NCBI GenBank assembly: GCA_028286905.1
Contig: JAQBQP010000001.1
Span: 79,114 to 143,113, forward strand
Length of the DNA stretch: 64,000 nt
Reading direction: 5' to 3'
From: Candidatus Doudnabacteria bacterium
GTDB lineage: Bacteria; Patescibacteriota; Doudnabacteria; UBA920; VMFF01
The notes beneath the pieces were generated by a model that was not told the DNA's origin, did no database searches, and worked only from the letters and a program-made list of their open reading frames with translations. This document shows positions 23,904 through 62,343 of the stretch, one piece after another (position 1 is the stretch's first letter; each line of letters begins with the position of its first letter). A program made the translations under genes and the position numbers.

Positions 23904-24419
23904 CTACTCTCTTTGCCAGACACAATATGCAGTGTTTCCAGTTAAGCAATGCCCGTTGTGCGGAGCATTCCAAGATGTATTGCATGCTGCCAGGGCTGGC
24001 ATATTGGAAGTTTGATTGTTTAAATTTTCCATTGGAGCGATCACAAAGGTTCCTCCGCATGGGTCTACGCCATAATCGTAGTAGTAATAAGTGTACGTGT
24101 TAGGAATATCAAGTGGATCATGAGGTACCTTGGCCATATAATTCGGGACAAGCTGGCTAAGAAAATTTGGTTGATTGTCAGCATAATAGCAGCATGGAGT
24201 GTAATTAGTTGGCATCGTGCCATTATCAATATAGTAAGCCTGTAAAGCAGTGTTTATCTGCAACAAGTCTGCTTTTCTTTTTACGTCTCTGGCATTACTG
24301 CGAGTTCTACTTACACCCACCAAAACAATTGAGACCAAAAGACCGATTATCGCAATGACAACCAACAGCTCAATTAACGTAAAGGCATTCGCAGAAGCTT
24401 GATTTGATTTTAGTTTCAT
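23904..24419 (-). CDS. Type IV pilin-like / pseudopilin (prepilin-type N-terminal methylation domain)
   Basis: Class III signal peptide …ANA|FTLIELLVVIAIIGLL, conserved E5, C-terminal Cys pair, YYYYDYG motif. Confidence 0.85.
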   Translation of the reverse strand: MKLKSNQASANAFTLIELLVVIAIIGLLVSIVLVGVSRTRSNARDVKRKADLLQINTALQAYYIDNGTMPTNYTPCCYYADNQPNFLSQLVPNYMAKVPHDPLDIPNTYTYYYYDYGVDPCGGTFVIAPMENLNNQTSNMPALAACNTSWNAPHNGHCLTGNTAYCVWQRE

Positions 24420-24488: not shown

Positions 24489-27311
24489 TTAGAGCAGTTT
24501 TTTTAAATATTGGCCAGTGTAACTTCGTTTTATTTTTACAATATCTTCTGGAGTACCGACCCCTATCAGCTCCCCGCCCTTATTGCCGCCTTCAGGTCCA
24601 AGATCAATTAACCAGTCTGCTGATTTAATTACATCTAAATTGTGTTCAATCACTACGACGGTATTTCCTTTTTCCACTAATTTGCTTAAGACTTGCAGCA
24701 AACGTTTGACGTCTGCGAAATGCAAACCGGTGGTTGGTTCGTCTAATATATATAGAGTGCGCCCAGTCGAAGCACGGGATAATTCGGAAGCCAACTTAAT
24801 ACGCTGTGCTTCTCCCCCCGATAGGGTGGTCGCTTGCTGGCCAAGATGCATATACCCTAAACCAACTTCTGCCAATGTGAAAAGTTTTCTATAAATCAAC
24901 GGGATGCTTTTGAAAAATTCTGCTGCTTCATCCACGGTCATTTCCAAAACCTCAGAGATATTTTTGCCTTTGTAATGAATTTCTAAAGCTTCGCGATTGT
25001 ATCTTCTGCCTTTGCATTCTTCACAAGCAACATAAACGTCCGGCAAGAAATGCATTTCTATTTTAATCACACCATCGCCGCCGCAAGTCTCACATCGCCC
25101 GCCTTTAACATTAAAAGAAAATCTCCCGGCTTTATATCCGCGCATTTTTGCTTCTGGCGTCGCCGCAAACAAATCGCGGATGTAAGTGAACACTCCTGTA
25201 TAAGTTGCTGGATTAGAGCGAGGCGTTCTACCAATTGGCGATTGATCAATATTAATAATTTTATCAACGTGCTCCATACCAACAATTTTCTTATGAGCAC
25301 CTGGGGCTTCTTTGGAACTGTAAAAATATTGTGATAAAGATTTGGCTAAAATTTCATTAAGCAAAGTGGATTTACCTGATCCGGAAACACCGGTTAAACA
25401 AACAAACTTTCCTAATGGAATATCAACGTTGATGTTCTGCAAATTGTGCTCAGTTGCTCCGATGATTGAAATCTTCTTGCCATTGCCAGGGTGCCTGCGC
25501 TTTGGCACTTCAATCTTTTCTGCGCCGGAAAGGTATTGCCCAGTAATAGAATTTTTATTCTTTGCAATTTGCGCTGGAGTTCCTTCGCCAATAATTTCAC
25601 CGCCATGTTTACCTGCGCCGGGACCAATGTCGACAACCCAGTCTGCGGCTTCAATTGTGTCTTGGTCATGCTCTACCACAATTACAGTATTACCAAGATC
25701 TCTTAAGCCTTTTAAAGTTTTAAGTAATCGATCATTATCTCTTTGATGCAAACCAATTGAAGGTTCGTCTAATATATAGAGCACTCCGGTTAAGCCAGAG
25801 CCGACCTGCGTCGCCAGACGAATACGTTGTGCTTCCCCGCCCGATAAAGTATCCGCGCCACGATCCAATGTTAAATAGTTTAAACCCACATCCAATAGGA
25901 AGGTTAAACGGGCGCAAATTTCTTTAAGAATTTGGTGTGCGATTTTTTTATCTTTTTCAGAAAGTTTTTTACTTAACGCCTGGAAAAAGACATCGGCGTC
26001 ATCGATGCTCATCGTCGATGTGTCAACAATTGATTTATCGGCTACAGTTACGGCCAAAACTTCTGGCTTTAATCTTTTACCATGACAAGATGGACATTCA
26101 CTAATGCGCATATAGTTCTCGATTTCATTGCGCATGTAGTCAGAGTCTGTTTCTTTGTATCTTCTTTCCAAGTTTGGGACCACGCCCTCAAAAGTAGTAT
26201 TGAAGCCATACTCATAATCTTCTTTTGAAGCTTCAACTTTTATCTTCTTTTCACCGGTTCCATGCAAAATAACATCAATTGCTTTTTCAGAAAGTTGGGA
26301 AATTGGTACATCCATCGAAAAACCATATTCATTTGCAACAGCTGTAAGCATTCGGGAATACCAAGAAATTCGGGAAGTGGTTTTGCTCCATGGTCGAATC
26401 GCACCTTCTGCTAATGTCAGCTTTGGATTAGGCATCACCAATTCTGGAGCGATTTCCAAGCGAGTGCCTAGGCCGGTACAAGTGGGGCACGCCCCATGCG
26501 GAGAATTGAACGAAAAGTTACGCGGAGCTAATTCCGGCATGCTCATATGCCCTTCGGGGCAAGCAAATTTCTGAGACAATAAAAATTCCTTACCGGTATC
26601 AAGATTTTGAACCAGAGCCACTTCATCGCCAAGGTCTAAAGCGGTTTCCAAGGAATCTGCCAAACGAGCGCGATCATTCTTATCAATGGTAATACGATCT
26701 ACGACGACATCAATAGAGTGTTTTTTCTTCTTATCTAAATTAAGTTGCAACGCTTCGGAAAGGTCCATTACAGTTCCGTCAACACGAACACGGGCATAGC
26801 CAGCTTTTTTTGCTTCTTCCAAAACGTGACGGTGCTCCCCTTTTTGATCTTTAATAAAAGGTGCCATCAAAATAATTTTGCTGCCTTCTGGCATTGAAAC
26901 TAATTGTTCGATCATTTGAGACGCAGATTGACCAGAAATTTTCTTTCCGCAAACAGGACAATGCGGTACGCCAACCCGGGCAAACAACAAACGCAGGTAG
27001 TCATAAATTTCTGTTACGGTACCTACAGTAGAACGCGGATTATGCGACGCGGATTTTTGATCAATAGAAATTGCAGGAGAAAGCCCTTCAATGCTTTCAA
27101 CATCTGGCTTATCCATCAAACCCAAAAATTGTCTTGCATATGCAGACAGAGATTCAACGTAGCGGCGTTGGCCCTCCGCATAAATAGTGTCGAAAGCCAA
27201 AGAAGACTTACCGGAACCGGAAAGGCCGGTCATAACAATTAACTTGTTACTTGGTAAGTCTAAACTAATGTTCTTTAAATTATGTTGTTTCGCGCCACGA
27301 ATTTTGATCAT
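24489..27311 (-). CDS. uvrA: Excinuclease ABC subunit A
   Basis: Two ABC ATPase modules ([23 protein letters not shown]), zinc-finger CxxC pairs, 940 aa; intrinsic terminator hairpin overlaps its last codons (24471-24499). Confidence 0.95.
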
Positions 27312-27471
27312 TTTGATTTCGAATTAATGAACGATTTGCTCGGGATTCACTAACTTCCGGTCTTTGTACACGCGGTTAGAAGAAAGTATATACCCTCTGT
27401 CAACGTTGGGTCAAGGGTCAAGTTGAGGACGCAGAGTCAAGTAAATTGCTAAATAAATTGGTGGCAAAACA

Positions 27472-27503
27472 AAGACACCACTCTCAAAATCAAGAGTGGT
27501 GTC
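27472..27503 (-). terminator. Intrinsic terminator of GC-rich 241-aa gene
   Basis: AGACACCACTCT-caaaatcaa-GAGTGGTGTCT followed on minus strand by TTGTTTTG. Confidence 0.7.
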
Positions 27504-27531
27504 TAGGTTTTATGACAGATCCGGGCGGGAG

Positions 27532-28257
27532 CTAGGCGGACTTCACGGTGCTCTCGGCGACCTCTGCGTCCGCCTCCAGCGCGATCGCTAGCGAGGCGTT
27601 GAGCTTGCCGGCGATCAGCGCGCGGTCGATGATGCTCTCTTCGAGCAACGCGACGTTATGCGCGTGAACGGTCTCGACATGCGCACGAATCGCGGCGAAC
27701 ACCTCCTCGTTCTCGCGATCGAGCGAGTAGAACACATCGTTGTAGAGGACGCACATCTGCACCAGGTACTCCGACGACGCCAAGGTGTGCGCGGCGAGGA
27801 AGTCCTTGAGTGCTTTCAGCTTCAGCCGCGCGTTTCGCTCGTACTGACTGAGGTCCATAGCGTAGTTCTTGGAGAGCTGCTGCACGAACGTGCAGAAGCT
27901 CTCCACCTCCGAGCGCAGACCCTTGGCGTCCTTCATCGTGGCGCGCACGAACTTGAACTGCGCGACCATCAGGTCGTTGAGGATTTCCGGCAGCATCGTG
28001 TAGGCCTTCTGAAGATCTGCGAAATTGTCGGAACTGATGTCGGACCCGACCCGATTGATCGACTCCACAAGCTCGGGAGACAACACGAAGTCCTCGATTC
28101 GCGGCTCCGCCTGCTCGTCTTCCGGAAACAAGGCGGCGAGCTCGGTCGCGAGAGCGCTTGCACGCACCCGCATCTCGACGATCAGGAAGCGTGCACCTTC
28201 GATGTTCAGCGCAACGACGGGTGCGGGAAGCCGGCTCGCAAGGCTGAGATCTGTCAT
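27532..28257 (-). CDS. Hypothetical cytoplasmic protein (241 aa) in GC-rich islet; weak Rx6H (HEPN-like) motif near C-terminus
   Basis: Long ORF with ~62% GC and high GC3, start ATG 28257 preceded by GGAGGA 7 nt upstream (ORF-track upstream extension to 28323 lacks SD). Predicted all-alpha; no family recognised; IRAHVETVH resembles HEPN Rx4-6H. Confidence 0.55.
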   Translation of the reverse strand: MTDLSLASRLPAPVVALNIEGARFLIVEMRVRASALATELAALFPEDEQAEPRIEDFVLSPELVESINRVGSDISSDNFADLQKAYTMLPEILNDLMVAQFKFVRATMKDAKGLRSEVESFCTFVQQLSKNYAMDLSQYERNARLKLKALKDFLAAHTLASSEYLVQMCVLYNDVFYSLDRENEEVFAAIRAHVETVHAHNVALLEESIIDRALIAGKLNASLAIALEADAEVAESTVKSA

Positions 28258-28329
28258 GTGATCATTCCTCCGAATGAGGCCGCTTATCGCGGCGTTGTTG
28301 GGAACTGTTGGCGCAAAAACCAATTTGAT

Positions 28330-28358
28330 ATAGTACCATAAAAGTTATTTTTTGTCAA
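28330..28358 (-). promoter_or_regulatory. Consensus promoter TTGACA-17-TGgTACTAT for the 241-aa gene
   Basis: Read on minus strand: TTGACAaaaaataacttttatggTACTAT, same style as rnj promoter at 33633. Confidence 0.55.
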
Positions 28359-28367
28359 CACAATCAA

Positions 28368-28411
28368 AAAGCCGCCTCCTTTCTATCCGTAGATAGATTG
28401 GTGGCGGCTTT
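28368..28411 (-). terminator. Hairpin separating 69-aa ORF from downstream 241-aa gene promoter
   Basis: AAGCCGCC…GGCGGCTT 8-bp GC stem with inner TATC-cgta-GATA element, followed on minus strand by TTTTT. Confidence 0.55.
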
Positions 28412-28450: not shown

Positions 28451-28660
28451 TTAGGACTTCAGCAGCGGCAGCCCGGCCATCGCCAGCATCGCCCGCTTCG
28501 AACGACGGATCCTGGTACCGCACTTCTGCGTACCGTTGGCGGTCGAACCCCTCGGCGCCGGATAGCGGCGACGCTCGGGCTGCTGAACGAGCAGCTGGAC
28601 CAGTACGATGCGGGTGATGCCGGCTTCCCGAACGACTTCGCGGCGCAGTGAGACTTTCAT
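28451..28660 (-). CDS. Small basic ORF (69 aa) in GC-rich islet, putative DNA-binding/regulatory protein
   Basis: ATG at 28660 with AAGGAG 7 nt upstream; GC3 ~75% in this frame only; overlapping 117-aa and plus-strand ORFs look like wrong frames. Confidence 0.4.
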   Translation of the reverse strand: MKVSLRREVVREAGITRIVLVQLLVQQPERRRYPAPRGSTANGTQKCGTRIRRSKRAMLAMAGLPLLKS

Positions 28661-28701
28661 GAATCTCTCCTTGAGATTTTGCTGCCTGAGGCAGCGGTGG
28701 C

Positions 28702-28727
28702 CCGAATATAACGACTGTTATATTCGG
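28702..28727. promoter_or_regulatory. Operator-like inverted repeat CCGAATATAAC-gact-GTTATATTCGG in 5' UTR of 69-aa ORF
   Basis: 11-bp perfect arms verified base by base; lies between a minus-strand TTGACA-17-TATCCT promoter (~28805-28835) and the ORF SD. Confidence 0.6.
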
Positions 28728-28901
28728 AATTCTTGTGGTGCAGGGGAAGGAATTGCGAAGAGGCCACAATAAAAATATATTAGCCCTCGCAACTCTTTTC
28801 CCAACACCATATCAAGATTTCTATAGGATACCAGAAACTTGTGTTTTTGTCAAGCTTATGTTCAAGTGCCAAAGAGTAATAAATACGCTATAATTCAAAG
28901 T

Positions 28902-30716
28902 ATGGCTTTAGATATCAAAGAAAAATTAAAGAATATTCCGCATAAACCTGGAGTTTACCTATTTAAAGGAAAGAATCAGGAGATCCTTTATGTTGGGAAA
29001 GCGAAGGATTTGAAGAACCGAGTTTCCCAATACTTCAGGAAGGAACACGACGGACGATTGCAAATCCCTTTTTTAATGCAGGATGTTACAGATTTCGAGC
29101 ACATCATTACCGACAACGATGTGGAGTGCTTGCTTTTAGAAAACACTTTGATAAAAAAATATAAGCCACGTTACAACATTAAATTACGTGATGATAAAAA
29201 TTATGCCTTTATAAAAATAGATTACGATTGTGAAATTCCACAGATATACACAATGAGAAACCCAGATTCTAAGAATGCTCGATATTTTGGACCATACTCC
29301 TCTGCTTTAAAGGTCCGAGAAACTTTAAATTTAGTTCGCAAAGTTTTTCCTTATTGTGCCAATAAGAAGGTAAGCAACCGTCCATGTTTTTATTACTATT
29401 TGCATCGCTGCCCTGGAGTTTGTATTGGTAAAATTTCACTTGAAGAATATCAGCAAACAATTCATAAGATTAGTTTGTTTATCGCCGGTAACATTTCTGA
29501 AGTTAAAAAAGATATCCAAAAGCAAATGCGTGAAGCCGCTTCACAAAAGCTTTTTGAACGAGCCGCTGATTTGCGCGATCAGATGCGCTCAATAGAAGTA
29601 GTTGAAGAGCGACAAAAAGCAATATTTGCAAAAAAGGTTGAATGGGATTTTATCTCTTATTTTCAAACTGCAGATAAATCTACTATTAATGTCTTTGTGA
29701 TTCGTGGAGGCAAAATGATCGATCGCAAAAACTTTATTTTAGAAGAGACCCAAAACAAATCTGGGTGTGATATTATTGATGCTTTTATGGAAAAATATTA
29801 CTTGGAAACTTCGGATCTACCAAGAGAGATATTTGTCCAGGAATTGCCGACGGATATTGAAATGATGGAGCGAGTGCTAAATGAAAAGAGCCAAAAGAAG
29901 CACAAGATTACAATCACCAAACCAAATCGTGCAAAAAAAGCCGAACTGATTACCTTAGGGATAGAAAATGCTAAAGAATATTTTGAGTCCTGGTCCCGAG
30001 ATCAAGTTTCTGAGCTTTCAAGAACAACTTTAGCGCTTGATGAATTGCAAAAAGTTTTGAAACTAAAAGAGACCCCTTTCAGAATAGAATGTTTTGATAT
30101 TTCAAATATTCAAGGTACTAACTCTGTAGCGAGCATGGTAGTATTTGAAAATGGCAAACCAAATCGTTCGCAGTACCGAAAATTTAAAATAAAAATAGAC
30201 GGTCAGCCAAATGATTTTGCAATGATGAAAGAAGCTTTAACTCGCCGCTTTCATCTTTCTCACCGGGAAGATACCGAGCAAAAGTGGCCTTTGCCTAACC
30301 TTTTAGTGGTTGATGGCGGAAAGGGTCAGCTAGGCATGGCGGTTGAAGTATTAAATGAATACGCTTTAGACATACCAGTTATTGGCCTAGCGAAACGCGA
30401 AGAAGAAATATTCTGGCCAGGCAAAGCTGAACCAATCTTATTGCCAAAATCAGATTATGCCTTACAGCTTTTACAACGTTTGCGTGATGAAGCGCATCGC
30501 TTTGCCATTACTTTCCATAAAAAACTTCGATCGAAACAAGCTTACCGATCCGTTCTCGATGACATTGCTGGCATTGGACCTAAAAAGAAAAAACTTCTTA
30601 TTAGAAAATATGGTTCGGTTGCGAACATAAAAAAACTAGCGAGCCCCGAAGAACTTTCGGAACTCGCTAGCTTAGTTGGCAAGACAGCCGCCGACGAACT
30701 AACCGCGAATTTGTAG
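28902..30716 (+). CDS. uvrC: Excinuclease ABC subunit C
   Basis: N-terminal GIY-YIG (PGVYLFKG…ILYVGKAKDLKNRV), UvrBC-binding, RNase H-like and C-terminal HhH; start MALDIKEKLK at 28902, TATAAT box 7 nt upstream (leaderless). Confidence 0.9.
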   Translation: MALDIKEKLKNIPHKPGVYLFKGKNQEILYVGKAKDLKNRVSQYFRKEHDGRLQIPFLMQDVTDFEHIITDNDVECLLLENTLIKKYKPRYNIKLRDDKNYAFIKIDYDCEIPQIYTMRNPDSKNARYFGPYSSALKVRETLNLVRKVFPYCANKKVSNRPCFYYYLHRCPGVCIGKISLEEYQQTIHKISLFIAGNISEVKKDIQKQMREAASQKLFERAADLRDQMRSIEVVEERQKAIFAKKVEWDFISYFQTADKSTINVFVIRGGKMIDRKNFILEETQNKSGCDIIDAFMEKYYLETSDLPREIFVQELPTDIEMMERVLNEKSQKKHKITITKPNRAKKAELITLGIENAKEYFESWSRDQVSELSRTTLALDELQKVLKLKETPFRIECFDISNIQGTNSVASMVVFENGKPNRSQYRKFKIKIDGQPNDFAMMKEALTRRFHLSHREDTEQKWPLPNLLVVDGGKGQLGMAVEVLNEYALDIPVIGLAKREEEIFWPGKAEPILLPKSDYALQLLQRLRDEAHRFAITFHKKLRSKQAYRSVLDDIAGIGPKKKKLLIRKYGSVANIKKLASPEELSELASLVGKTAADELTANL

Positions 30717-31451
30717 CTCCAATCCCTCAACTAGTGGCTGGTTTAGGGCCTCAATCATTGGAGGAGCGACTTGACTCAGATAGCCATACTTCGACTTTCT
30801 GAATCGCGCTTCAATCGAAGTGATCGCATCTGCATGCGAAACACCTGGATGAGAAGGGCCACGATACTCTCGCATTCCGACATAGATATCGACGAAATGC
30901 ACGATCGAGGCAAGCTTCAATTCACGAACTGCGTGAACCCGGTGAGAAATCTGCGCGAGCCTTTCGGGGGTGTGGTGATACCGTACCCCGAAACAAACGC
31001 TGCGCAAGGTTTTCCACTCCGCCTCGGTAAGACCCATACTGCTCCCCAGCTGGATCAGCATCACCTTCGAGAGTTTGGCATGACCCTCTTTGGCGGCGCG
31101 CTCCGATTCCGGCAATGGTCCCTCAATCCGATGACCATGCCAAACGGTCTTACTGAAGTCGTGCAGATAACCGATCAAACTGATCTTGTAAATCTCTTCC
31201 CTACCACACCCCAGCAAGTGGGCAATCACTTCGGAGTATAGTTCTACGTTCTCCAAGTGATCGGCCAGCAAAGCATTGTGGTATCCGGTACGCGGTTCAA
31301 TAAACTCCTGGTCATGTACATTGACCAACTCTTTCACCCGTGACTTCAGGCGAATGAGTCCAGGAGAATCGATACTGATGTGTCCGCGCCGCTCGACTTC
31401 GGGGGTATAGCAAAGAAAAGGGCCCAGCGCCGTCGGCTGTGTCTTGTTCAT
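30699..31451 (-). CDS. HD-domain metal-dependent phosphohydrolase (GC-rich islet)
   Basis: H…HD…H…H…D pattern (ADHLEN; IGYLHDFSK; HGHRIEG; EGHAKLS; HFVDIY); ~52% GC; AGGAGG 6 nt before ATG; 3' end overlaps uvrC by 18 nt (convergent). Confidence 0.6.
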   Translation of the reverse strand: MNKTQPTALGPFLCYTPEVERRGHISIDSPGLIRLKSRVKELVNVHDQEFIEPRTGYHNALLADHLENVELYSEVIAHLLGCGREEIYKISLIGYLHDFSKTVWHGHRIEGPLPESERAAKEGHAKLSKVMLIQLGSSMGLTEAEWKTLRSVCFGVRYHHTPERLAQISHRVHAVRELKLASIVHFVDIYVGMREYRGPSHPGVSHADAITSIEARFRKSKYGYLSQVAPPMIEALNQPLVEGLELQIRG

Positions 31452-33776: not shown

Positions 33777-35573
33777 ATGATTAAAAACAGATCCTCACTT
33801 AAGGATCAAGGTACTGGCACGTCTGATCTCGAAGATGAGACCACCATTGCCCCCAAAGACACGCATGTCCCTACTCCGGTAGTGGCAACAACCAGTAAAT
33901 TTACTTCTTCCCGTCAGAATTTGCGCATTATCCCTATGGGTGGTGTAGAAGAAGTTGGAGAAAACATGACCGTATTCGAATACGGTGATGACTTGTTAAT
34001 TATCGACATGGGACTTGCCTTTCCAGATGAAAGCATGCCCGGCATCGATTACATTATTCCAGACACAAAATGGTTGGAAGAAAATAGAAAAAGAATTCGC
34101 GGTGTAATTATCACCCACGGCCATTTGGACCACACCGGTGGTATTCCATATATTCTACCGAAGCTTGGTGATCCACCAATTTACACAATGCCGCTTACGG
34201 CTGGCTTTGTGAAAAAACGTTTGGAAGAATTCGGTTTGTTAGGCCGCGCTAAAGTTAACTCTTTACATATTGACGACGTTTTAAGCTTAGGCGCTTTCAA
34301 GATTAGATTCTTTAGAGTAAACCACAGCTTCCCAGACGGAGTTGGTTTGGCAATTACGACTCCAGTTGGAACAGTTGTTTATGCGACTGACTGGAAATTT
34401 GACCATACCCCAGTAGATAATAAGCCAGCAGAATTTGCGAAGATTGCTCAAATCGGTGCCGAAGGCGTTTTGCTTTTGATGTCCGATTCGACTAACGCCG
34501 CAGTTCCGGGATATGCAGTTTCTGAAAGAGAACTTTCTGATACAATCGATCGTGTTTTCAGCGAAGCGAAAGGCAGAATTATTTTTGCGACCTTTGCGAC
34601 AAACATTTCTCGTGTACAGCAAGTTTTCAACTCTGCTGCAAAATTTAACCGTAAGGTTATTGTTACTGGACGCAGCATGGTTCAAAACATTGAGATCGCT
34701 TTATCGCTTGGCTACTTAAACATCCAGCCGAAAATCGTTATCAAAACTGAACAAGCAAATAAATTCCCTGATAGCCAGATTGTTGTCCTAACAACCGGTT
34801 CCCAGGGAGAAGAAGCGGCGGCTCTATCTAGAATTGCCCGCGGTGAACACAAAACTATCAAGATTAGAAAAGGAGATACTGCGGTTATCTCCTCTACTCC
34901 AATTCCTGGAAATGAAAGATCTGTATCCAGCGTTCTTTCAAACTTAACTCGTGAAGGTGCAAAAGTTCTTTATTATAAAAATTTAGACATCCATACTTCT
35001 GGACACGCTAAACAAGAAGATTTGAAGCTGATGATTTCTTTGGTTAAACCAAAGTACTTCATGCCGATCCACGGTGAACACTACATGTTGGTAGCGCACG
35101 CTGAATTAGCTAAAATGCTGCACATCCCTGATGAAAATATTTTCATTATGGATAACGGCCAAGCAGTGGAAATCAATTCCGCTCAACAAGCAAAACTTGC
35201 TGAAGCAAAAATTCCTGGTGGCTACATCTTCATCGACGGTTTAGGTATCGGCGATGTTGGCGAAGTAGTTATCCGTGATCGTCAAGTTATGGCAAAAGAC
35301 GGAATGTTTGTGATTATCTTAATGGTTGATCGCAAAACGGGTAAGCTTATCAGCCAACCGGATATTATTTCGAGAGGCTTCATTTATATGAAGGGCTCCG
35401 ACGAATTGATCCGGGAAGTTAAACATGAAGTCCGCAAGCTCTTTGAAGGCAAAGGCCACGGCGAAGCAAATTACTCTTCTATCAGACAAATTGTTCGTGA
35501 TGAAATTGGCGAATATCTATATCAAAAAACTGAACGTAAGCCTATGATCTTACCAGTGGTATTAGAGGTTTAA
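33777..35573 (+). CDS. rnj: Ribonuclease J
   Basis: Metallo-beta-lactamase HxHxDH (ITHGHLDHTGG), beta-CASP and C-terminal domain; ~50-aa N-terminal extension before IPMGGVEEVGENMTV. Confidence 0.9.
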   Translation: MIKNRSSLKDQGTGTSDLEDETTIAPKDTHVPTPVVATTSKFTSSRQNLRIIPMGGVEEVGENMTVFEYGDDLLIIDMGLAFPDESMPGIDYIIPDTKWLEENRKRIRGVIITHGHLDHTGGIPYILPKLGDPPIYTMPLTAGFVKKRLEEFGLLGRAKVNSLHIDDVLSLGAFKIRFFRVNHSFPDGVGLAITTPVGTVVYATDWKFDHTPVDNKPAEFAKIAQIGAEGVLLLMSDSTNAAVPGYAVSERELSDTIDRVFSEAKGRIIFATFATNISRVQQVFNSAAKFNRKVIVTGRSMVQNIEIALSLGYLNIQPKIVIKTEQANKFPDSQIVVLTTGSQGEEAAALSRIARGEHKTIKIRKGDTAVISSTPIPGNERSVSSVLSNLTREGAKVLYYKNLDIHTSGHAKQEDLKLMISLVKPKYFMPIHGEHYMLVAHAELAKMLHIPDENIFIMDNGQAVEINSAQQAKLAEAKIPGGYIFIDGLGIGDVGEVVIRDRQVMAKDGMFVIILMVDRKTGKLISQPDIISRGFIYMKGSDELIREVKHEVRKLFEGKGHGEANYSSIRQIVRDEIGEYLYQKTERKPMILPVVLEV

Positions 35574-35727: not shown

Positions 35728-36225
35728 TTAATAAGTGTTGCATAGGCAATACCATTGCGATACTGATTGTTCGCACCAGCCAACCCCGGAACTAACCGGC
35801 CAAGGACGACAGGTGCCTTGTTCTCCAGTAACGCTTGCGGTACTCGCTTCTAATACGGTTGTAACTAATGCTCCGACACCGTTGTTACCAAGGCCATAAT
35901 CGTAATAATAATAAGGCGCTCCGCCTGCTGGGGCATGCGGAATTTTGGCAAGAATTCCGGTATTAACCAGCTCGATCAAAAAATTTGGTTGTGTATCCGA
36001 ATAACCGATTCCTATGGTTTGGTTTGCTGGCATCGTGCCAGTGTTTTGATAATATAAATTTAACGCGGTTTTTAACTGCTGCATATCTTGCTTACGCAAC
36101 GCATCCCTACCCTTCGCTCGAGCAGTGCCCAGAGCTCCCATAACAATCGAGGCCAAAAGCCCAATAATTGCGATGACAATCAATAGCTCAATTAACGTAA
36201 ATGCTTTATTTGTTTTTTGAATCAT
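35728..36225 (-). CDS. Type IV pilin-like / pseudopilin (second paralog)
   Basis: …KA|FTLIELLIVIAIIGLL, E5, C-terminal Cys pair, PNFL…AKIPH and YYYYDYG motifs shared with 23904-24419. Confidence 0.85.
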   Translation of the reverse strand: MIQKTNKAFTLIELLIVIAIIGLLASIVMGALGTARAKGRDALRKQDMQQLKTALNLYYQNTGTMPANQTIGIGYSDTQPNFLIELVNTGILAKIPHAPAGGAPYYYYDYGLGNNGVGALVTTVLEASTASVTGEQGTCRPWPVSSGVGWCEQSVSQWYCLCNTY

Positions 36226-39053: not shown

Positions 39054-39467
39054 TCAGCTCCAGACCGGCTTTCCGGTTTTCGTCAGCCCCATCTCCCTGC
39101 GAAGTGCATTGCAGGAGAATGTCCGCTCACGAACATGGCCGCAAACCGAAATCTTCAGCTTAACGTGGCGGACGCCGACTGCTTCCGCTCCAATCAGGCC
39201 ACGACCGTGTGTACCCAAGCAGTAGCATGTAGCTGCTCGAGCAATCGGTAAGGCCCAGTTCATCTGTACACCCATCGGACTGTGTCTGCCGAGATCGCGA
39301 ATGACCTGGTGAACTTCACGATCGAATGCCTTGTTCAATTCCTCCCTGGAAATATTGTTACCTGCGTCTGAAGTTGGCAGAGTGCCAACTCCGCTGATAC
39401 CCTTGGTCGAGGCGGGATGCCCTTCTCCGTTTAGGAAGAGCATTGAGGACCCTGGGTTCACCAGCAT
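39054..39467 (-). CDS. Hypothetical Cys/His-containing protein (137 aa) in GC-rich islet
   Basis: ~55% GC ORF with GGGAG upstream of ATG and its own terminator; Gly-rich N-half, C-half has CYCLGTHGRG … VCGHVRERTFSCN; no family recognised. Confidence 0.45.
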   Translation of the reverse strand: MLVNPGSSMLFLNGEGHPASTKGISGVGTLPTSDAGNNISREELNKAFDREVHQVIRDLGRHSPMGVQMNWALPIARAATCYCLGTHGRGLIGAEAVGVRHVKLKISVCGHVRERTFSCNALRREMGLTKTGKPVWS

Positions 39468-49754: not shown

Positions 49755-50372
49755 ATGTTTTCATTGAGCGGAGTTGTTAACGTTATTTCCAAAGACGTAC
49801 TGGTCTGGGGAACCTTCTTGGTGTTCCTGGAAGCATTCTGGGCCTACATGGATCGGATGCTGACGGCCGGCCAAATGCGCAACCGCGGCTTCTTTCGTGG
49901 AATTCCATTCCTGCCGCATCCGGCTTGCTGGGCGGACCTGCTGATCTTCACGCCGCTGATAGCATACCTCTACGGTCGATTCGGATCGACCTGGACGGCT
50001 AGGGAAAGTCTGGTCTGTATGCTGATTGCTCTCTTCATCTGCTACGGCATGACCAAGATGTGGATCGAGGGCGGACTGGAAATCCCGGACTTTGCCACTT
50101 ATCACCACGAGCTGACATTAGCGGGCTGGTTACACACGCTGTATTTCTGGGCGGCATTTGTCGCGGTACTGCTGTTCGCGAACACACCAAACGTCCCCCG
50201 CACCGAATCAGCAATCCTGTTGTCGATCATCGCCGTGCATGTCACCGCTGGAACCGTCTGGCCGAACATCTACACCCGTCGGCCGGCGTTTCCAAGGTCG
50301 ACGGTAGCCACACTGCTTCCCTGCTACGCGTTGATCGCCGCGACTTGGTTCTACCAGGCACATCATCGGTAG
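49755..50372 (+). CDS. Hypothetical integral membrane protein (205 aa, 4-5 TM) in GC-rich islet
   Basis: ~57% GC ORF, GAGGAGG SD, aromatic-rich TM helices; no family recognised. Confidence 0.55.
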   Translation: MFSLSGVVNVISKDVLVWGTFLVFLEAFWAYMDRMLTAGQMRNRGFFRGIPFLPHPACWADLLIFTPLIAYLYGRFGSTWTARESLVCMLIALFICYGMTKMWIEGGLEIPDFATYHHELTLAGWLHTLYFWAAFVAVLLFANTPNVPRTESAILLSIIAVHVTAGTVWPNIYTRRPAFPRSTVATLLPCYALIAATWFYQAHHR

Positions 50373-58832: not shown

Positions 58833-59216
58833 TCATGCGACCGCGGTGGCGGGGCTGGCTGACCTCCTGACAGCCAAGCTGGTTGGAGGAACGCGCCCCG
58901 CCAAAGCACTCCCCACGCTCGCTTGAACGGCGCCGGGACTTCGATCGGTCGAGCCAGTACTCCAGCAGGAAAACCTGCTGAGGTACAAGTTATGGGTTGT
59001 CAGGGCTGGCCGGATCATACTTGTCGGCTCGAGGATCGGTACATACTCGTCGGTCAATGGACTCGTGAGAGGCATCAACGGATGAGTGTAAACGATCGAC
59101 GAACTGACCGGAACCGTGCTAGCGCCGACGTTCGTAGCAGGTACTCCCGCTGCGATCAAACACATCGCAGCGATTGAACAAGCTACGCGAACCCGGGGTG
59201 ACACTAACTTCATCAC
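58833..59216 (-). CDS. Small secreted hypothetical protein (127 aa) in GC-rich islet
   Basis: AAGGAGGTG SD 2 nt before ATGATG; Sec-type signal peptide (MMKLVSPRVRVACSIAAMCLIAAGVPATNVGA); Ser/Thr/Pro-rich mature part; ~57% GC. Confidence 0.45.
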   Translation of the reverse strand: MMKLVSPRVRVACSIAAMCLIAAGVPATNVGASTVPVSSSIVYTHPLMPLTSPLTDEYVPILEPTSMIRPALTTHNLYLSRFSCWSTGSTDRSPGAVQASVGSALAGRVPPTSLAVRRSASPATAVA

Positions 59217-61878: not shown

Positions 61879-62343
61879 ATGCGTAAGTACTTAGGGACTC
61901 TATTTTTAGTTAGCTTGATCGTGATGATAGGCGTCTCGGCCTTAGTCCTCAGATCGTCGCCTAAACCTGGCAGCCGCCTTGCTCTGCAGCATCAATGGGC
62001 AGATTCATCGCGGCTCTCTGGACGAGAGATCAGAGTTCTTGCAATGATCCCTGACACCGCGCGCTGCGCAAACTTCTACAACTCGCTCAATCGCCTGGGT
62101 TGGGTCCTGCTTCAGACAGAGAGCGATGACTCCAGCTTCTACTCTCATATGACCAAGGAGGATTACGCCCGTGCCGCCCGAACAATCGTGGAGCGCGACA
62201 GCGCCTACCGGCAGCTGTGCACGAGTAACCGTACATTCGTAGCGACCCAGAAATACAAGCTTGCAGTCGCGCGCGCAAGGGAGGTGCTTGACCTGGAGAA
62301 AGCCTACTACGCGGCGTTAACCAACTCGAGCAGCTTGCGGTAG
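61879..62343 (+). CDS. Hypothetical membrane-anchored protein (154 aa) in GC-rich islet
   Basis: N-terminal signal-anchor/TM (LGTLFLVSLIVMIGVSALVL) then soluble alpha-helical domain; ~56% GC; own promoter and terminator. Confidence 0.5.
   Translation: MRKYLGTLFLVSLIVMIGVSALVLRSSPKPGSRLALQHQWADSSRLSGREIRVLAMIPDTARCANFYNSLNRLGWVLLQTESDDSSFYSHMTKEDYARAARTIVERDSAYRQLCTSNRTFVATQKYKLAVARAREVLDLEKAYYAALTNSSSLR

Follow-up and report, generated by a model that had tools for sequence, protein, structure and literature searches.

The locus analysed here lies in a 64-kb stretch of DNA (the window) and consists of a complete one-gene expression unit on the minus strand (28358-27466), which encodes a 241-aa protein and is flanked by uvrA and uvrC, with a small basic ORF (orf69) on its uvrC side (Table 1). 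An earlier note, made from the sequence alone, had described this unit as self-contained and placed between uvrA and uvrC, and every element that it named was recovered: the promoter TTGACA-17-TGgTACTAT at 28358-28330 of the minus strand, a GGAGGA SD 8 nt ahead of the ATG, an ORF (27532-28257) given as ~62% GC and measured at 0.609, and, as a putative terminator, a 14-bp stem followed by a T-tract. The promoter of the 241-aa gene (P2) was 76% identical to a second promoter close to the start of uvrC (P1), and these two were the only sites with the pattern TTGACA-N14-16-TGGTA in the 64-kb window, where 0.07 would be expected. Six promoter-like sites were counted in the 1.75-kb region, as against 1.0 ± 0.8 in shuffled sequences.

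Table 1. Features of the uvrC/uvrA region and of its surroundings, in window coordinates.
Feature	Position	Strand	Description
uvrA	24489-27311	-	Flanks the unit
uvrA own promoter	27385..27414	-	TTGACC-18-TATACT within tandem TTGAC repeats
Intrinsic terminator	27466..27504	-	14-bp stem (27504-27473), 4-nt loop, T-tract
Fold-back helix, 3' arm (predicted)	27512..27522	-	GGAUCUGUCAU; begins 9 nt past the stop codon
CDS of the 241-aa family-A protein	27532..28257	-	Acidic, soluble, seven-helix bundle (predicted)
Fold-back helix, 5' arm (predicted)	28247..28257	-	AUGACAGAUCU; start codon and codons 2-4; pairing probability 0.86-1.00
Local SD hairpin	28262..28277	-	UCAUUC-GGAG-GAAUGA; presents or partly occludes the GGAGGA SD (predicted)
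SD GGAGGA	28271-28266	-	8 nt upstream of the ATG at 28257
P2, promoter of the 241-aa gene	28330..28358	-	TTGACA-17-TACTAT with TG extension
orf69 terminator	28364..28411	-	Hairpin with 20-nt arms and T-tract; divides orf69 from the 241-aa unit
orf69, small basic protein	28451..28660	-	69 aa, pI 12, GC 0.65
P1, slot promoter by the uvrC start	28825..28853	-	TTGACA-17-TATCCT with TG; predicted to drive orf69 here
uvrC	28902-30716	+	Flanks the unit
RNase J gene	33777-35573		Present in the window

The sequence evidence identifies the 241-aa ORF as a genuine gene of an ultra-small bacterium with a Candidatus Doudnabacteria-like Patescibacteria (CPR) genome. A Logan contig matching the locus was identical across 11.2 kb, and an independent JGI contig (L164) was 99.7% identical and spanned both junctions, which ruled out an assembly artefact. 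Two of the four SNPs in L164 formed a compensatory change from an A-T to a G-C pair in the terminator stem (27500/27477). Long ORFs do arise by chance in GC-rich DNA, and a 227-aa ORF is open on the plus strand (27658-28341), as could be expected if the called frame were a chance opening in GC-rich DNA (non-coding, contaminant, or chimeric) or if the real gene lay antisense. However, the codon positions of the CDS had GC contents of 0.63, 0.36, and 0.835 (GC1/2/3), and this periodicity, with GC3 far above GC1 and GC1 above GC2, was confined to the called frame; moreover, colinear orthologs occupy the same slot, the junctions recur in independent assemblies, and the confidence of the AF2 model climbed once orthologs were added. 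An overlapping antisense gene was rejected because in L082 its frame is interrupted, with at most 134 aa open at a stretch. The earlier note had allowed for a spurious ORF lying in contaminant DNA; this is already refuted by the orthologs and independent assemblies, with next to no probability left to it.

The pI of the protein is 4.74, and its hydropathy over 19 residues peaks at 1.35; no membrane segment is therefore predicted. Both AF2 models were all-helical, in agreement with the acidic, all-helical product foreseen from the sequence, and the mean pLDDT rose from 45 to 85 on adding the orthologs. The protein is confidently modelled as a soluble, acidic, elongated seven-helix bundle. The AF2 model was compared by Foldseek with PDB and BFVD, a search that the earlier note had proposed, and no fold match was obtained, which leaves the family unassigned. 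Likewise, no family match was found in Pfam, NCBIfam, PHROGs, or PADLOC, nor among PDB sequences by profile search, and the statement that no family can be assigned stands. The possibility of a routine housekeeping family was not borne out either, with no match to any known family in these searches. The HEPN, Abi, and GvpF/L matches that had been suggested as leads were not found, the GvpL_GvpF model giving no match at E up to 1 in Pfam. PADLOC-DB returned 0 matches for the window protein and a single sub-threshold match (SIR2, E 0.0019) for one ortholog.

An exhaustive phmmer search of 1.84 billion representatives detected two orthologs at 26-28% identity, P0004 (E 1e-17) and P0005 (E 6e-5), both colinear and full-length. 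The genes for both lie directly upstream of uvrA, that of P0004 between uvrC and uvrA. The resulting family, here called family A, consists of three 90% clusters worldwide and is known solely from the intergenic slot between the divergent genes uvrC and uvrA. Beyond this slot, searches of 5.8 billion clusters, 1.84 billion representatives, 185,579 species genomes, IMG/VR, INPHARED, and PLSDB yielded no homolog, and tblastn searches of phages and plasmids gave no match to the protein. On this sequence sampling, family A is very small and lineage-restricted. The term ORFan applied to the gene earlier holds in that no family can be assigned, but the protein does belong to a position-conserved family of three clusters. 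Identity over the ORF was 28%, compared with 91% for UvrA, 93% for RNase J, 88% for DnaK, and 82% for UvrC, and neighbouring gene products were 75-93% identical; by these sequence identities, the 241-aa protein has diverged far more than its neighbours. A single hyper-diverged family comprising all genes of the slot was rejected (hhalign probability ≤3%), as was an internal repeat within the protein. Neither the region nor the leaders of the orthologs matched an Rfam family.

Among relatives, the distance between uvrC and uvrA ranged from 106 to 2206 bp. It measured 106 bp, with an empty slot, in a relative that is among the closest sampled. Either no gene or an unrelated gene lay in the slot of L084, one of these closest relatives, and of several other genomes. 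At least five mutually unrelated cargo types were seen, one of them an EAL domain, and the cargo in relatives was mostly GC-rich. P1 and its flanks are orthologous to the promoter directly ahead of the family-A gene in L082 and L083, and also to the promoter of a 64-aa ORF (orf64) in L002. From these comparisons, the uvrC/uvrA gap is an accessory-gene hot spot with a conserved uvrC-proximal promoter. The promoter of uvrA itself was kept in L084, L082, L083, and L002, and since uvrA has this promoter of its own, its predicted transcription is independent of the 241-aa gene.

The place directly upstream of uvrA, kept in three genomes, together with the acidity of all three orthologs (pI 4.7-5.2), could point to a DNA-repair accessory factor, a regulator of uvrA/uvrC, or a DNA mimic. 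We consider such a role very unlikely, given that uvrA is preceded by a strong terminator and then by a conserved promoter of its own, that L084 and several other relatives lack the gene or have an unrelated one, and that 28% identity is incompatible with co-evolution alongside a UvrA that is 91% identical. No DNA-binding domain was detected in the protein, and at about -14 its net charge is well removed from the values of the classical DNA mimics Ocr and ArdA.

The neighbouring orf69 had been raised as a possible small basic partner of the 241-aa gene, and an Rx6H pattern in the latter as a HEPN-type RNase motif. The string (IRAHVETVH) is present in the window sequence, and the aligned residues are INSRVEQMV in P0004 and MAGRVAKVQ in P0005 (alignment A1): the arginine is out of register, and V/K or Q/R stand in place of the histidine. 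Since the orthologs do not share the motif, the HEPN idea fails. The partner idea fails in turn because orthologs occur without orf69, as in L082 and L083, where the family-A gene is present and orf69 is not. Conversely, L002 has a homolog of orf69 standing alone, without the 241-aa gene; its orf64 is 50% identical to orf69 over 38 aa and is followed by a similar terminator. Between the two genes in the window lie a terminator and a second promoter, and on this sequence evidence orf69 is an independent neighbour. A structured RNA at orf69 was also considered and dropped, the resemblance to L002 being confined to the protein level. That the protein is an RNase toxin of HEPN/Abi type, or that it forms a toxin-antitoxin pair with ORF 28451-28660, is therefore highly improbable and largely refuted by the tests made here: the idea draws on an Rx6H string in one sequence, on the adjoining basic 69-aa ORF, and on a fold-back mRNA that recalls toxin genes (PMC9841398), against which stand the loss of the motif, the separate occurrence and separate promoters of the two genes, and the lack of HEPN, Abi, or PADLOC matches and of a HEPN-like fold. 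The co-occurrence and co-transcription across homologs that mark type II toxin-antitoxin pairs were not found for orf69 and the 241-aa gene.

The composition of the gene is unusual. The CDS is 61% GC with a GC3 of 0.84, compared with about 0.35 in core genes, and its codon choice is the inverse of theirs. The GC-rich block is exactly coextensive with the CDS, and promoter, leader, and terminator have a host-like composition. GC3 was 0.84, 0.77, and 0.67 in the three orthologs, on backgrounds of about 0.35-0.45. At four-fold sites of core genes, K between the lineages was about 1.0-1.3; by this comparison of sequences, synonymous sites of core genes are saturated while GC-rich codons persist in all three orthologs. 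Either the GC-rich synonymous sites would be actively maintained, or the alleles would have entered each genome after the lineages split; the argument that a GC excess should erode under neutral mutation is a rough calculation made on saturated sites.

The same composition could be the unameliorated signature of a donor, with GC-rich DNA from high-GC organisms (host bacteria or their phages) landing repeatedly in a permissive intergenic site as passive cargo, and with the complement between start and 3' UTR described below being functionless. The inverse codon usage does resemble that of a genome of about 60-65% GC, the slots of relatives hold unrelated cargo, including the recognisable EAL domain, the slot is empty in one of the closest relatives sampled, and horizontal gene transfer and genomic islands are reported to be common in Patescibacteria (PMC12455944). 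This origin is possible but, in our estimation, unlikely. The databases searched yielded no homolog from non-CPR organisms, phages, or plasmids; the only three relatives known all occupy this slot, together with an orthologous promoter and leader; the GC-rich block stops at the CDS edges, with host-like flanking elements; and the predicted helix has compensatory changes. Neither donor-lineage homologs nor an integrase or transposase, as expected of a recent transfer island, were found. A 16-nt direct repeat bracketing the unit was within chance expectation, which we estimate at about 0.4.

In the window, the start codon region has a perfect 10-11 bp complement in the 3' UTR, and in all three orthologs the start codon is predicted to pair with a box 9-10 nt past the stop codon. 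Partition-function calculations gave this helix a probability of about 1.0, 0.98, and 0.65 in the three orthologous mRNAs, with duplex energies of -14.9 (window), -10.6, and -9.8 kcal/mol. All nine of nine pairs were kept in the three sequences, three of them with changes on both sides (compensatory), compared with 15-56% paired and no compensation in slid controls; a column-shuffle control was not significant (65 of 500 shuffles), the helix resting on three distinct sequences. Ten Watson-Crick pairs were reached by two of 46 window ORFs, the 241-aa gene and another GC-rich orphan. The SD hairpin had a pairing probability of 0.85-0.97 in the full-length fold and has equivalents in L083 (ACAUUC/GAAUGU) and L082 (ACACUC/GAGUGU), including a U-A to C-G change. 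The native mRNA fold had a z-score of -5.7 relative to dinucleotide shuffles. With codon shuffles, family A ranged from -1.2 to -3.2 and control genes from -1.4 to -5.1; selection for strong folding of the whole CDS was set aside as not distinctive, being no more extreme than in control genes. No promoter-like site was found on the plus strand within 27466-28358 by a consensus scan, which is insensitive to weak or atypical promoters.

The 10-bp inverted repeat ATGACAGATC ... GATCTGTCAT might instead act at the DNA level, its arms serving either as terminal inverted repeats or as sites of recombination for a mobile cassette that comprises only the CDS and sits in a fixed expression slot. The 3' arm marks the 3' edge of the GC-rich block, and as the repeats coincide with both of its edges, they could be the boundary of such a cassette; a conserved slot promoter with variable cargo would fit, and terminal repeats would likewise co-vary at both ends. 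We regard this explanation as improbable, because the unit and its surroundings contain no gene for a recombinase or transposase, the cargo genes of family B, L003, and L091 lack such repeats, and the 5' arm is already constrained as start codon and codons 2-4. A further start/3' repeat occurs in the cassette at 49755-50372, but its sequence is unrelated, so there is no common site. Furthermore, the two non-Watson-Crick pairs of the orthologs read as G-U in the sense RNA, which an RNA helix tolerates but which would be mismatches between DNA repeats. An inversion switch based on the repeat was rejected, since by our reading of the sequence the ATG of the 3' arm meets a stop after seven codons.

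The arrangement predicted for the mRNA has parallels in three studied systems. In the icaR mRNA of Staphylococcus aureus, pairing of the 5' and 3' UTRs was shown experimentally: a 3' box (UCCCCUG) in a long 3' UTR binds the SD, and an RNase III substrate is formed (PMC3868564). As in icaR, a 3'-UTR box of an ordinary protein-coding mRNA would pair with its own initiation region, with a block as the expected effect, and the sequences of the three orthologs show conserved complementarity between the two. Unlike in icaR, the partner here is the start codon with codons 2-4, the box lies 9-10 nt past the stop in a 3' UTR of roughly 65 nt, and the pairing is a computational prediction. In the type I toxin-antitoxin system hok, the tac/fbi fold-back is a long-distance 5'-3' helix that holds the full-length mRNA in a form predicted to be translationally inert; Hok itself, a membrane toxin, is ~50 aa long, and the system also has an overlapping mok frame and the antisense RNA Sok (PMC9841398). 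A hok-like 5'-3' helix closing the full-length mRNA is present in the predicted structure, and a strong promoter would similarly be combined with throttled translation. However, the product here is a soluble acidic protein of 241 aa, not a small hydrophobic membrane toxin (under about 60 aa), and the consensus scan predicted no antisense promoter. [quoted passage not shown] As with hbs, the long-range helix would join the mRNA ends, and could modulate ribonuclease access; both organisms have RNase J. Unlike here, the hbs helix is confined to the UTRs and leaves the start codon uncovered.

The slot itself resembles genomic islets, variable accessory hot spots between core genes (for horizontal transfer in Patescibacteria, see PMC12455944), in its conserved uvrC/uvrA flanks, in a gap ranging from empty to 2.2 kb, and in its unrelated, atypical, mostly unannotated genes. 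It differs from them in that its cargo is a single gene without mobility genes and is GC-richer, not AT-richer, than the core, in that the conserved slot promoter is reused, and in that one cargo family consists of positional orthologs keeping GC-rich codons. What is new here is the uvrC/uvrA hot spot, the persistence of GC-rich codons in three orthologs, and the pairing of start and 3' box, which predicts a fold-back.

We favour, at a probability of roughly 55%, a joint reading in which a genuine one-gene unit is under fold-back regulation, its GC-rich synonymous sites are either maintained or of later entry into each genome, and its product has an accessory conflict function. In the full-length mRNA, the start codon would be paired with the 3' box and the small hairpin would also hold the SD, so that ribosomes would load mainly during transcription or after trimming of the 3' end. 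Such an icaR/hok-like fold-back would limit translation from a promoter of consensus strength, and GC-rich codons, rare in the core genes compared, may throttle it further. The product would be an accessory, conflict-type, or conditionally harmful protein, acting, for instance, in interactions with phage or host. The 241-aa protein matched none of the models for defence, toxin, or effector proteins, and this function, suggested as probable by genomic context and sequence divergence, is the weakest step. We infer that the protein is not a repair factor, a HEPN protein, or a toxin-antitoxin toxin.

A broader and rather doubtful extension is that GC-rich orphan cassettes of one gene each may form a class of their own in Doudnabacteria-like CPR genomes, lodged between core genes in conserved expression slots. 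Members may share a consensus promoter, a strong terminator, and actively maintained inverse codon usage, with a start-codon/3'-UTR fold-back in at least two cassettes, and may yield stable, translationally dormant mRNAs for rapidly diversifying proteins of symbiont-host or phage conflict. Our literature searches retrieved no account of GC-rich orphan cassettes from CPR genomes.

Genomes of CPR/Patescibacteria are small, yet rich in unannotated lineage-specific genes that are thought to underlie episymbiosis. This locus is a tractable example, with a defined slot, a confident predicted fold without known relatives, and a testable RNA mechanism, and it poses a compositional puzzle, a GC3 of 0.67-0.84 being kept despite synonymous saturation. 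Should neither the fold-back nor the GC maintenance be real, the gene would be one more orphan in a hot spot. If both are real and general, they would indicate tight post-transcriptional control of fast-evolving, possibly harmful genes in reduced genomes and would provide a simple sequence signature for finding them. The existence of a cassette class, if true, would mean a novel mode of organisation and regulation for accessory genes, as well as gene-specific maintenance of GC against the AT-biased mutation of the genome.

The promoter, SD, ORF and hairpin with T-tract that an earlier note had described between uvrA and uvrC were all found at minus-strand positions (see table), and the region of this 241-aa gene contains six promoter-like sites, compared with 1.0 ± 0.8 in shuffles. 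The coding sequence is GC-rich as claimed, although at 60.9% rather than ~62% (0.63, 0.36 and 0.835 at codon positions 1, 2 and 3). The mean GC of the window is 41%, and GC3 is 0.30-0.42 in 37 other window ORFs. The edges of the GC-rich block are those of the coding sequence, while the promoter, leader and terminator are host-like in composition.

Features of the 241-aa unit, further GC-rich ORFs of the window and genes filling the uvrC/uvrA gap in relatives
Feature	Location	Strand	Remarks
Promoter P2	28358-28330	-	TTGACA-17-TACTAT with TG extension; 241-aa gene
Leader	between promoter and SD/ATG	-	~70 nt; 241-aa gene
SD	8 nt 5' of ATG at 28257	-	GGAGGA; 241-aa gene
CDS	28257 (ATG) to 27532	-	241 codons
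Terminator	27504-27466	-	14-bp hairpin and T-tract; 3' of 241-aa gene
uvrA	24489-27311	-	flanks 241-aa unit
uvrC	28902-30716	+	flanks 241-aa unit
GC-rich ORF	30699-31451	-	
GC-rich ORF	39054-39467	-	
GC-rich ORF	49755-50372	+	
GC-rich ORF	58833-59216	-	
GC-rich ORF	61879-62343	+	
166-aa family	L085, L086, L090, L093		gap cargo
265-aa ORF	L091, L092		gap cargo
226-aa ORF	L003		gap cargo; GC3 0.90
EAL-domain protein	L109 2756-3484	+	gap cargo; Pfam E 2e-29

A Logan contig was identical to the window over 11.2 kb at this locus, and an independent JGI contig (L164) covered both junctions at 99.7% identity with four SNPs. One is a conservative M97I change in the protein, one leaves a perfect 11-bp hairpin (28727-28702), in the leader of the promoter beside uvrC (P1), paired as G-U, and the remaining two, in the terminator stem (27500/27477), compensate each other by turning an A-T pair into G-C. 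A word-indexed search of 5.8 billion clusters matched the gene to itself only. Exhaustive phmmer on 1.84 billion representatives retrieved two further proteins, P0004 (243 aa, 27% identity, E 1e-17, full-length and colinear) and P0005 (229 aa, 26% identity, E 6e-5), which form family A with the 241-aa protein; a profile search for more members gained none. P0004 is flanked by uvrC and uvrA-hrcA-grpE-dnaK on the 429-kb contig L082, P0005 lies immediately upstream of uvrA on L083, and both loci occupy the same genomic place as the 241-aa gene. With a four-row alignment AF2 reached a pLDDT of 85 (pTM 0.65), up from 45 for the sequence alone. The antisense ORF opposite the gene is disrupted in L082 and is an expected by-product of the high GC3. 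Since the ORF was reproduced in independent contigs and has orthologs in the same slot, an artefact is very unlikely, and we consider the unit a genuine, lineage-restricted accessory gene with no assigned biochemical role.

The small basic ORF at 28451-28660 on the minus strand (orf69, pI 12), previously suggested as a partner, did not hold up as one: L082 and L083 carry family A without it, and L002 encodes an orf69 homolog (50% identical over 38 aa) without family A. In the window, a terminator (28411-28364) and P2 stand between the two genes. A toxin-antitoxin pair is likewise unlikely because they occur apart.

Family A has diverged far more than its neighbours, with 28% identity between the window and L082 proteins against 64-93% for neighbouring ones (UvrA 91%, RNase J 93%, DnaK 88%, UvrC 82%). 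Core four-fold sites differ at 56-62% (K ~1.0-1.3), thus neutral sites have turned over. Despite this turnover, family-A GC3 is 0.84, 0.77 and 0.67 against backgrounds of ~0.35-0.45, and GC4 at conserved residues is 0.69-0.85. Codon choice is the inverse of that in core genes (GAG:GAA 19:4 vs 17:94; AAG:AAA 9:1 vs 38:91). With vertical descent and mutation as in the core genes, we would expect each lineage to lose about half of the GC excess; therefore either selection or biased conversion would have maintained the GC-rich codons, or the alleles would have entered once the lineages had separated. None of the collections searched yielded a donor. Such retention is unusual.

The start region AUGACAGAUC(U), at 28257-28247, is fully complementary to (G)GAUCUGUCAU, at 27522-27512, a box starting 9 nt past the stop codon. 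Pairing is retained with different sequences in L082 (AUGACGGAC with GUUCGUCAU) and L083 (AUGACGAAU with GUUCGUCAU), where the start was taken at the third-codon AUG in agreement with the MT(D/N) N-terminus of the other two orthologs. Standard pairs occur at all nine helix positions in all three sequences, with two-sided changes at three pairs (A-U/G-C; G-C/G-U/A-U; U-A/C-G/U-G). Slid-register controls gave 15-56% pairing and no compensation; a column shuffle, on three sequences only, was not significant (65/500). In partition functions of the full predicted mRNAs, helix probabilities were ~1.0, 0.98 and 0.65, and duplex energies were -14.9, -10.6 and -9.8 kcal/mol. When the start region of each of 46 window ORFs was compared with the 35 nt past its stop, only this gene and the GC-rich orphan 49755-50372 attained 10 Watson-Crick pairs, most having 4-7. 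A local SD hairpin is also retained in the orthologs, with a U-A to C-G change. The repeat could instead mark a DNA-level cassette boundary, a reading that stays open because its positions match the compositional edges of the GC-rich block; however, mobility genes are absent, the repeat of the other cassette (49755-50372) is unrelated in sequence, and pairs that depart from Watson-Crick are G-U when read on the sense strand. As modelled, an RNA fold-back plausibly occludes the start codon. The nearest mechanisms described are the 3'-UTR/SD pairing of icaR (PMC3868564), the tac/fbi fold-back of hok (PMC9841398) and the 5'/3'-UTR helix of hbs (PMC5737220). Whole-mRNA folding of the 241-aa gene gave z = -5.7 against dinucleotide shuffles, but was not distinctive in family A with codon shuffles (z -1.2 to -3.2 vs -1.4 to -5.1 in controls). 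A 16-nt direct repeat was dismissed as within chance expectation by our own estimate.

The 241-aa gene sits in a conserved, variable expression slot. The divergent uvrC/uvrA order is kept across 80 metagenomic relatives, with gaps from 106 bp (L084, whose UvrA, at 93% identity, gave the top value in the metagenome scan) to 2206 bp. Many gaps are filled by GC-rich ORFs oriented as uvrA; relatedness to family A was undetectable for the 166-aa, 265-aa, 226-aa and EAL-domain cargo. The bona fide EAL-domain (c-di-GMP phosphodiesterase) gene, with a GC of 0.55 in a genome of 0.45, indicates that the slot takes recognisable genes too. The window's P1 (28853-28825) and the first part of its leader have orthologous counterparts in L002, L082 and L083. 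From the sequence layout, P1 directly drives the family-A gene in L082 and L083; in the window it drives orf69, and P2, a copy 76% identical to P1, drives the 241-aa gene. The SD-proximal leader CGGCC.CATTCGGAGGA is common to the window and L083. The P1 leader (window 28661-28824, minus strand; L082 9779-10000, ~225 nt; L083 76-212) has a conserved hairpin, GCGAGGGCUAAU...GCCUCUUCGC, and neither it nor the region matched Rfam. Tandem TTGAC repeats surround the promoter of uvrA (TTGACC-N5-TTGACA-N7-TATACT; 27385-27441, minus strand), with additional copies upstream in the window. These repeats, kept in L084 (4938-4972), L082 (10820-10860) and L083 (~1020-1050), may be an operator for some regulator.

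Five further GC-rich ORFs without Pfam match (GC 0.52-0.59, GC3 0.58-0.70) lie amid core genes of ~41% GC, each with its own promoter-like site, GGAGG SD and hairpin-plus-T terminator, bringing the GC-rich units, with the 241-aa gene and orf69, to seven in 64 kb. The 49755-50372 ORF (205 aa) is the NCBI 'hypothetical protein JWO40_119 [Candidatus Doudnabacteria bacterium]', matched itself only among 5.8 billion clusters and looks, by sequence, like a membrane protein. Its codons 2-5 (TTTTCATTGAG) and 3' UTR (TTCAATGAAAA) form an 11-bp complement with one G-U pair, apparently the same type of fold-back. The 30699-31451 product (GC 0.52) has HD-like motifs (LHDxxK, HH) and belongs to ~250-aa proteins adjoining uvrC across the clade (L082 7144-7884, L002 3332-4117, L003 3465-4256); it has diverged strongly, its identity to L082 being 47% where neighbours reach 75-93%.

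The nearest UvrC relatives were in MAGs bearing the labels Candidatus Doudnabacteria (81%) and Saccharibacteria (72%). Type IV pilin-like N_methyl proteins and RNase J are part of a gene content in keeping with a CPR/Patescibacteria genome. Several pilin-like genes near the locus (23904-24419 and 35728-36225, both minus strand; L082 1348-2403 and 4389-4865) differ in copy number between the window genome and L082.

All three family-A proteins are acidic (pI 4.7-5.2), and the AF2 model of the 241-aa protein has seven helices, including 46- and 32-residue ones, in line with the predicted acidic, all-helical protein. The 241-aa protein has no membrane segment, and no internal repeat was found. 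The earlier note could assign no family, and neither could we from Pfam, NCBIfam, PHROGs, PADLOC or a profile search of PDB sequences; Foldseek returned only generic helical bundles, with E no better than 0.19 in PDB (TM up to 0.35) and 0.13 in BFVD. Conserved in family A are LFP, EQ(F/L)x(F/Y)(L/V)R, YNxV...D, RV(E/A)...AN and a C-terminal ES....SA tail. The Rx6H pattern, once offered as a HEPN-type RNase motif, is unconserved in the alignment, and we thus reject that reading. A role as a repair factor is also unlikely. Our guess, from context only, is that the 241-aa gene may encode a protein of the conflict type, or one harmful under some conditions, whose translation is tightly controlled.
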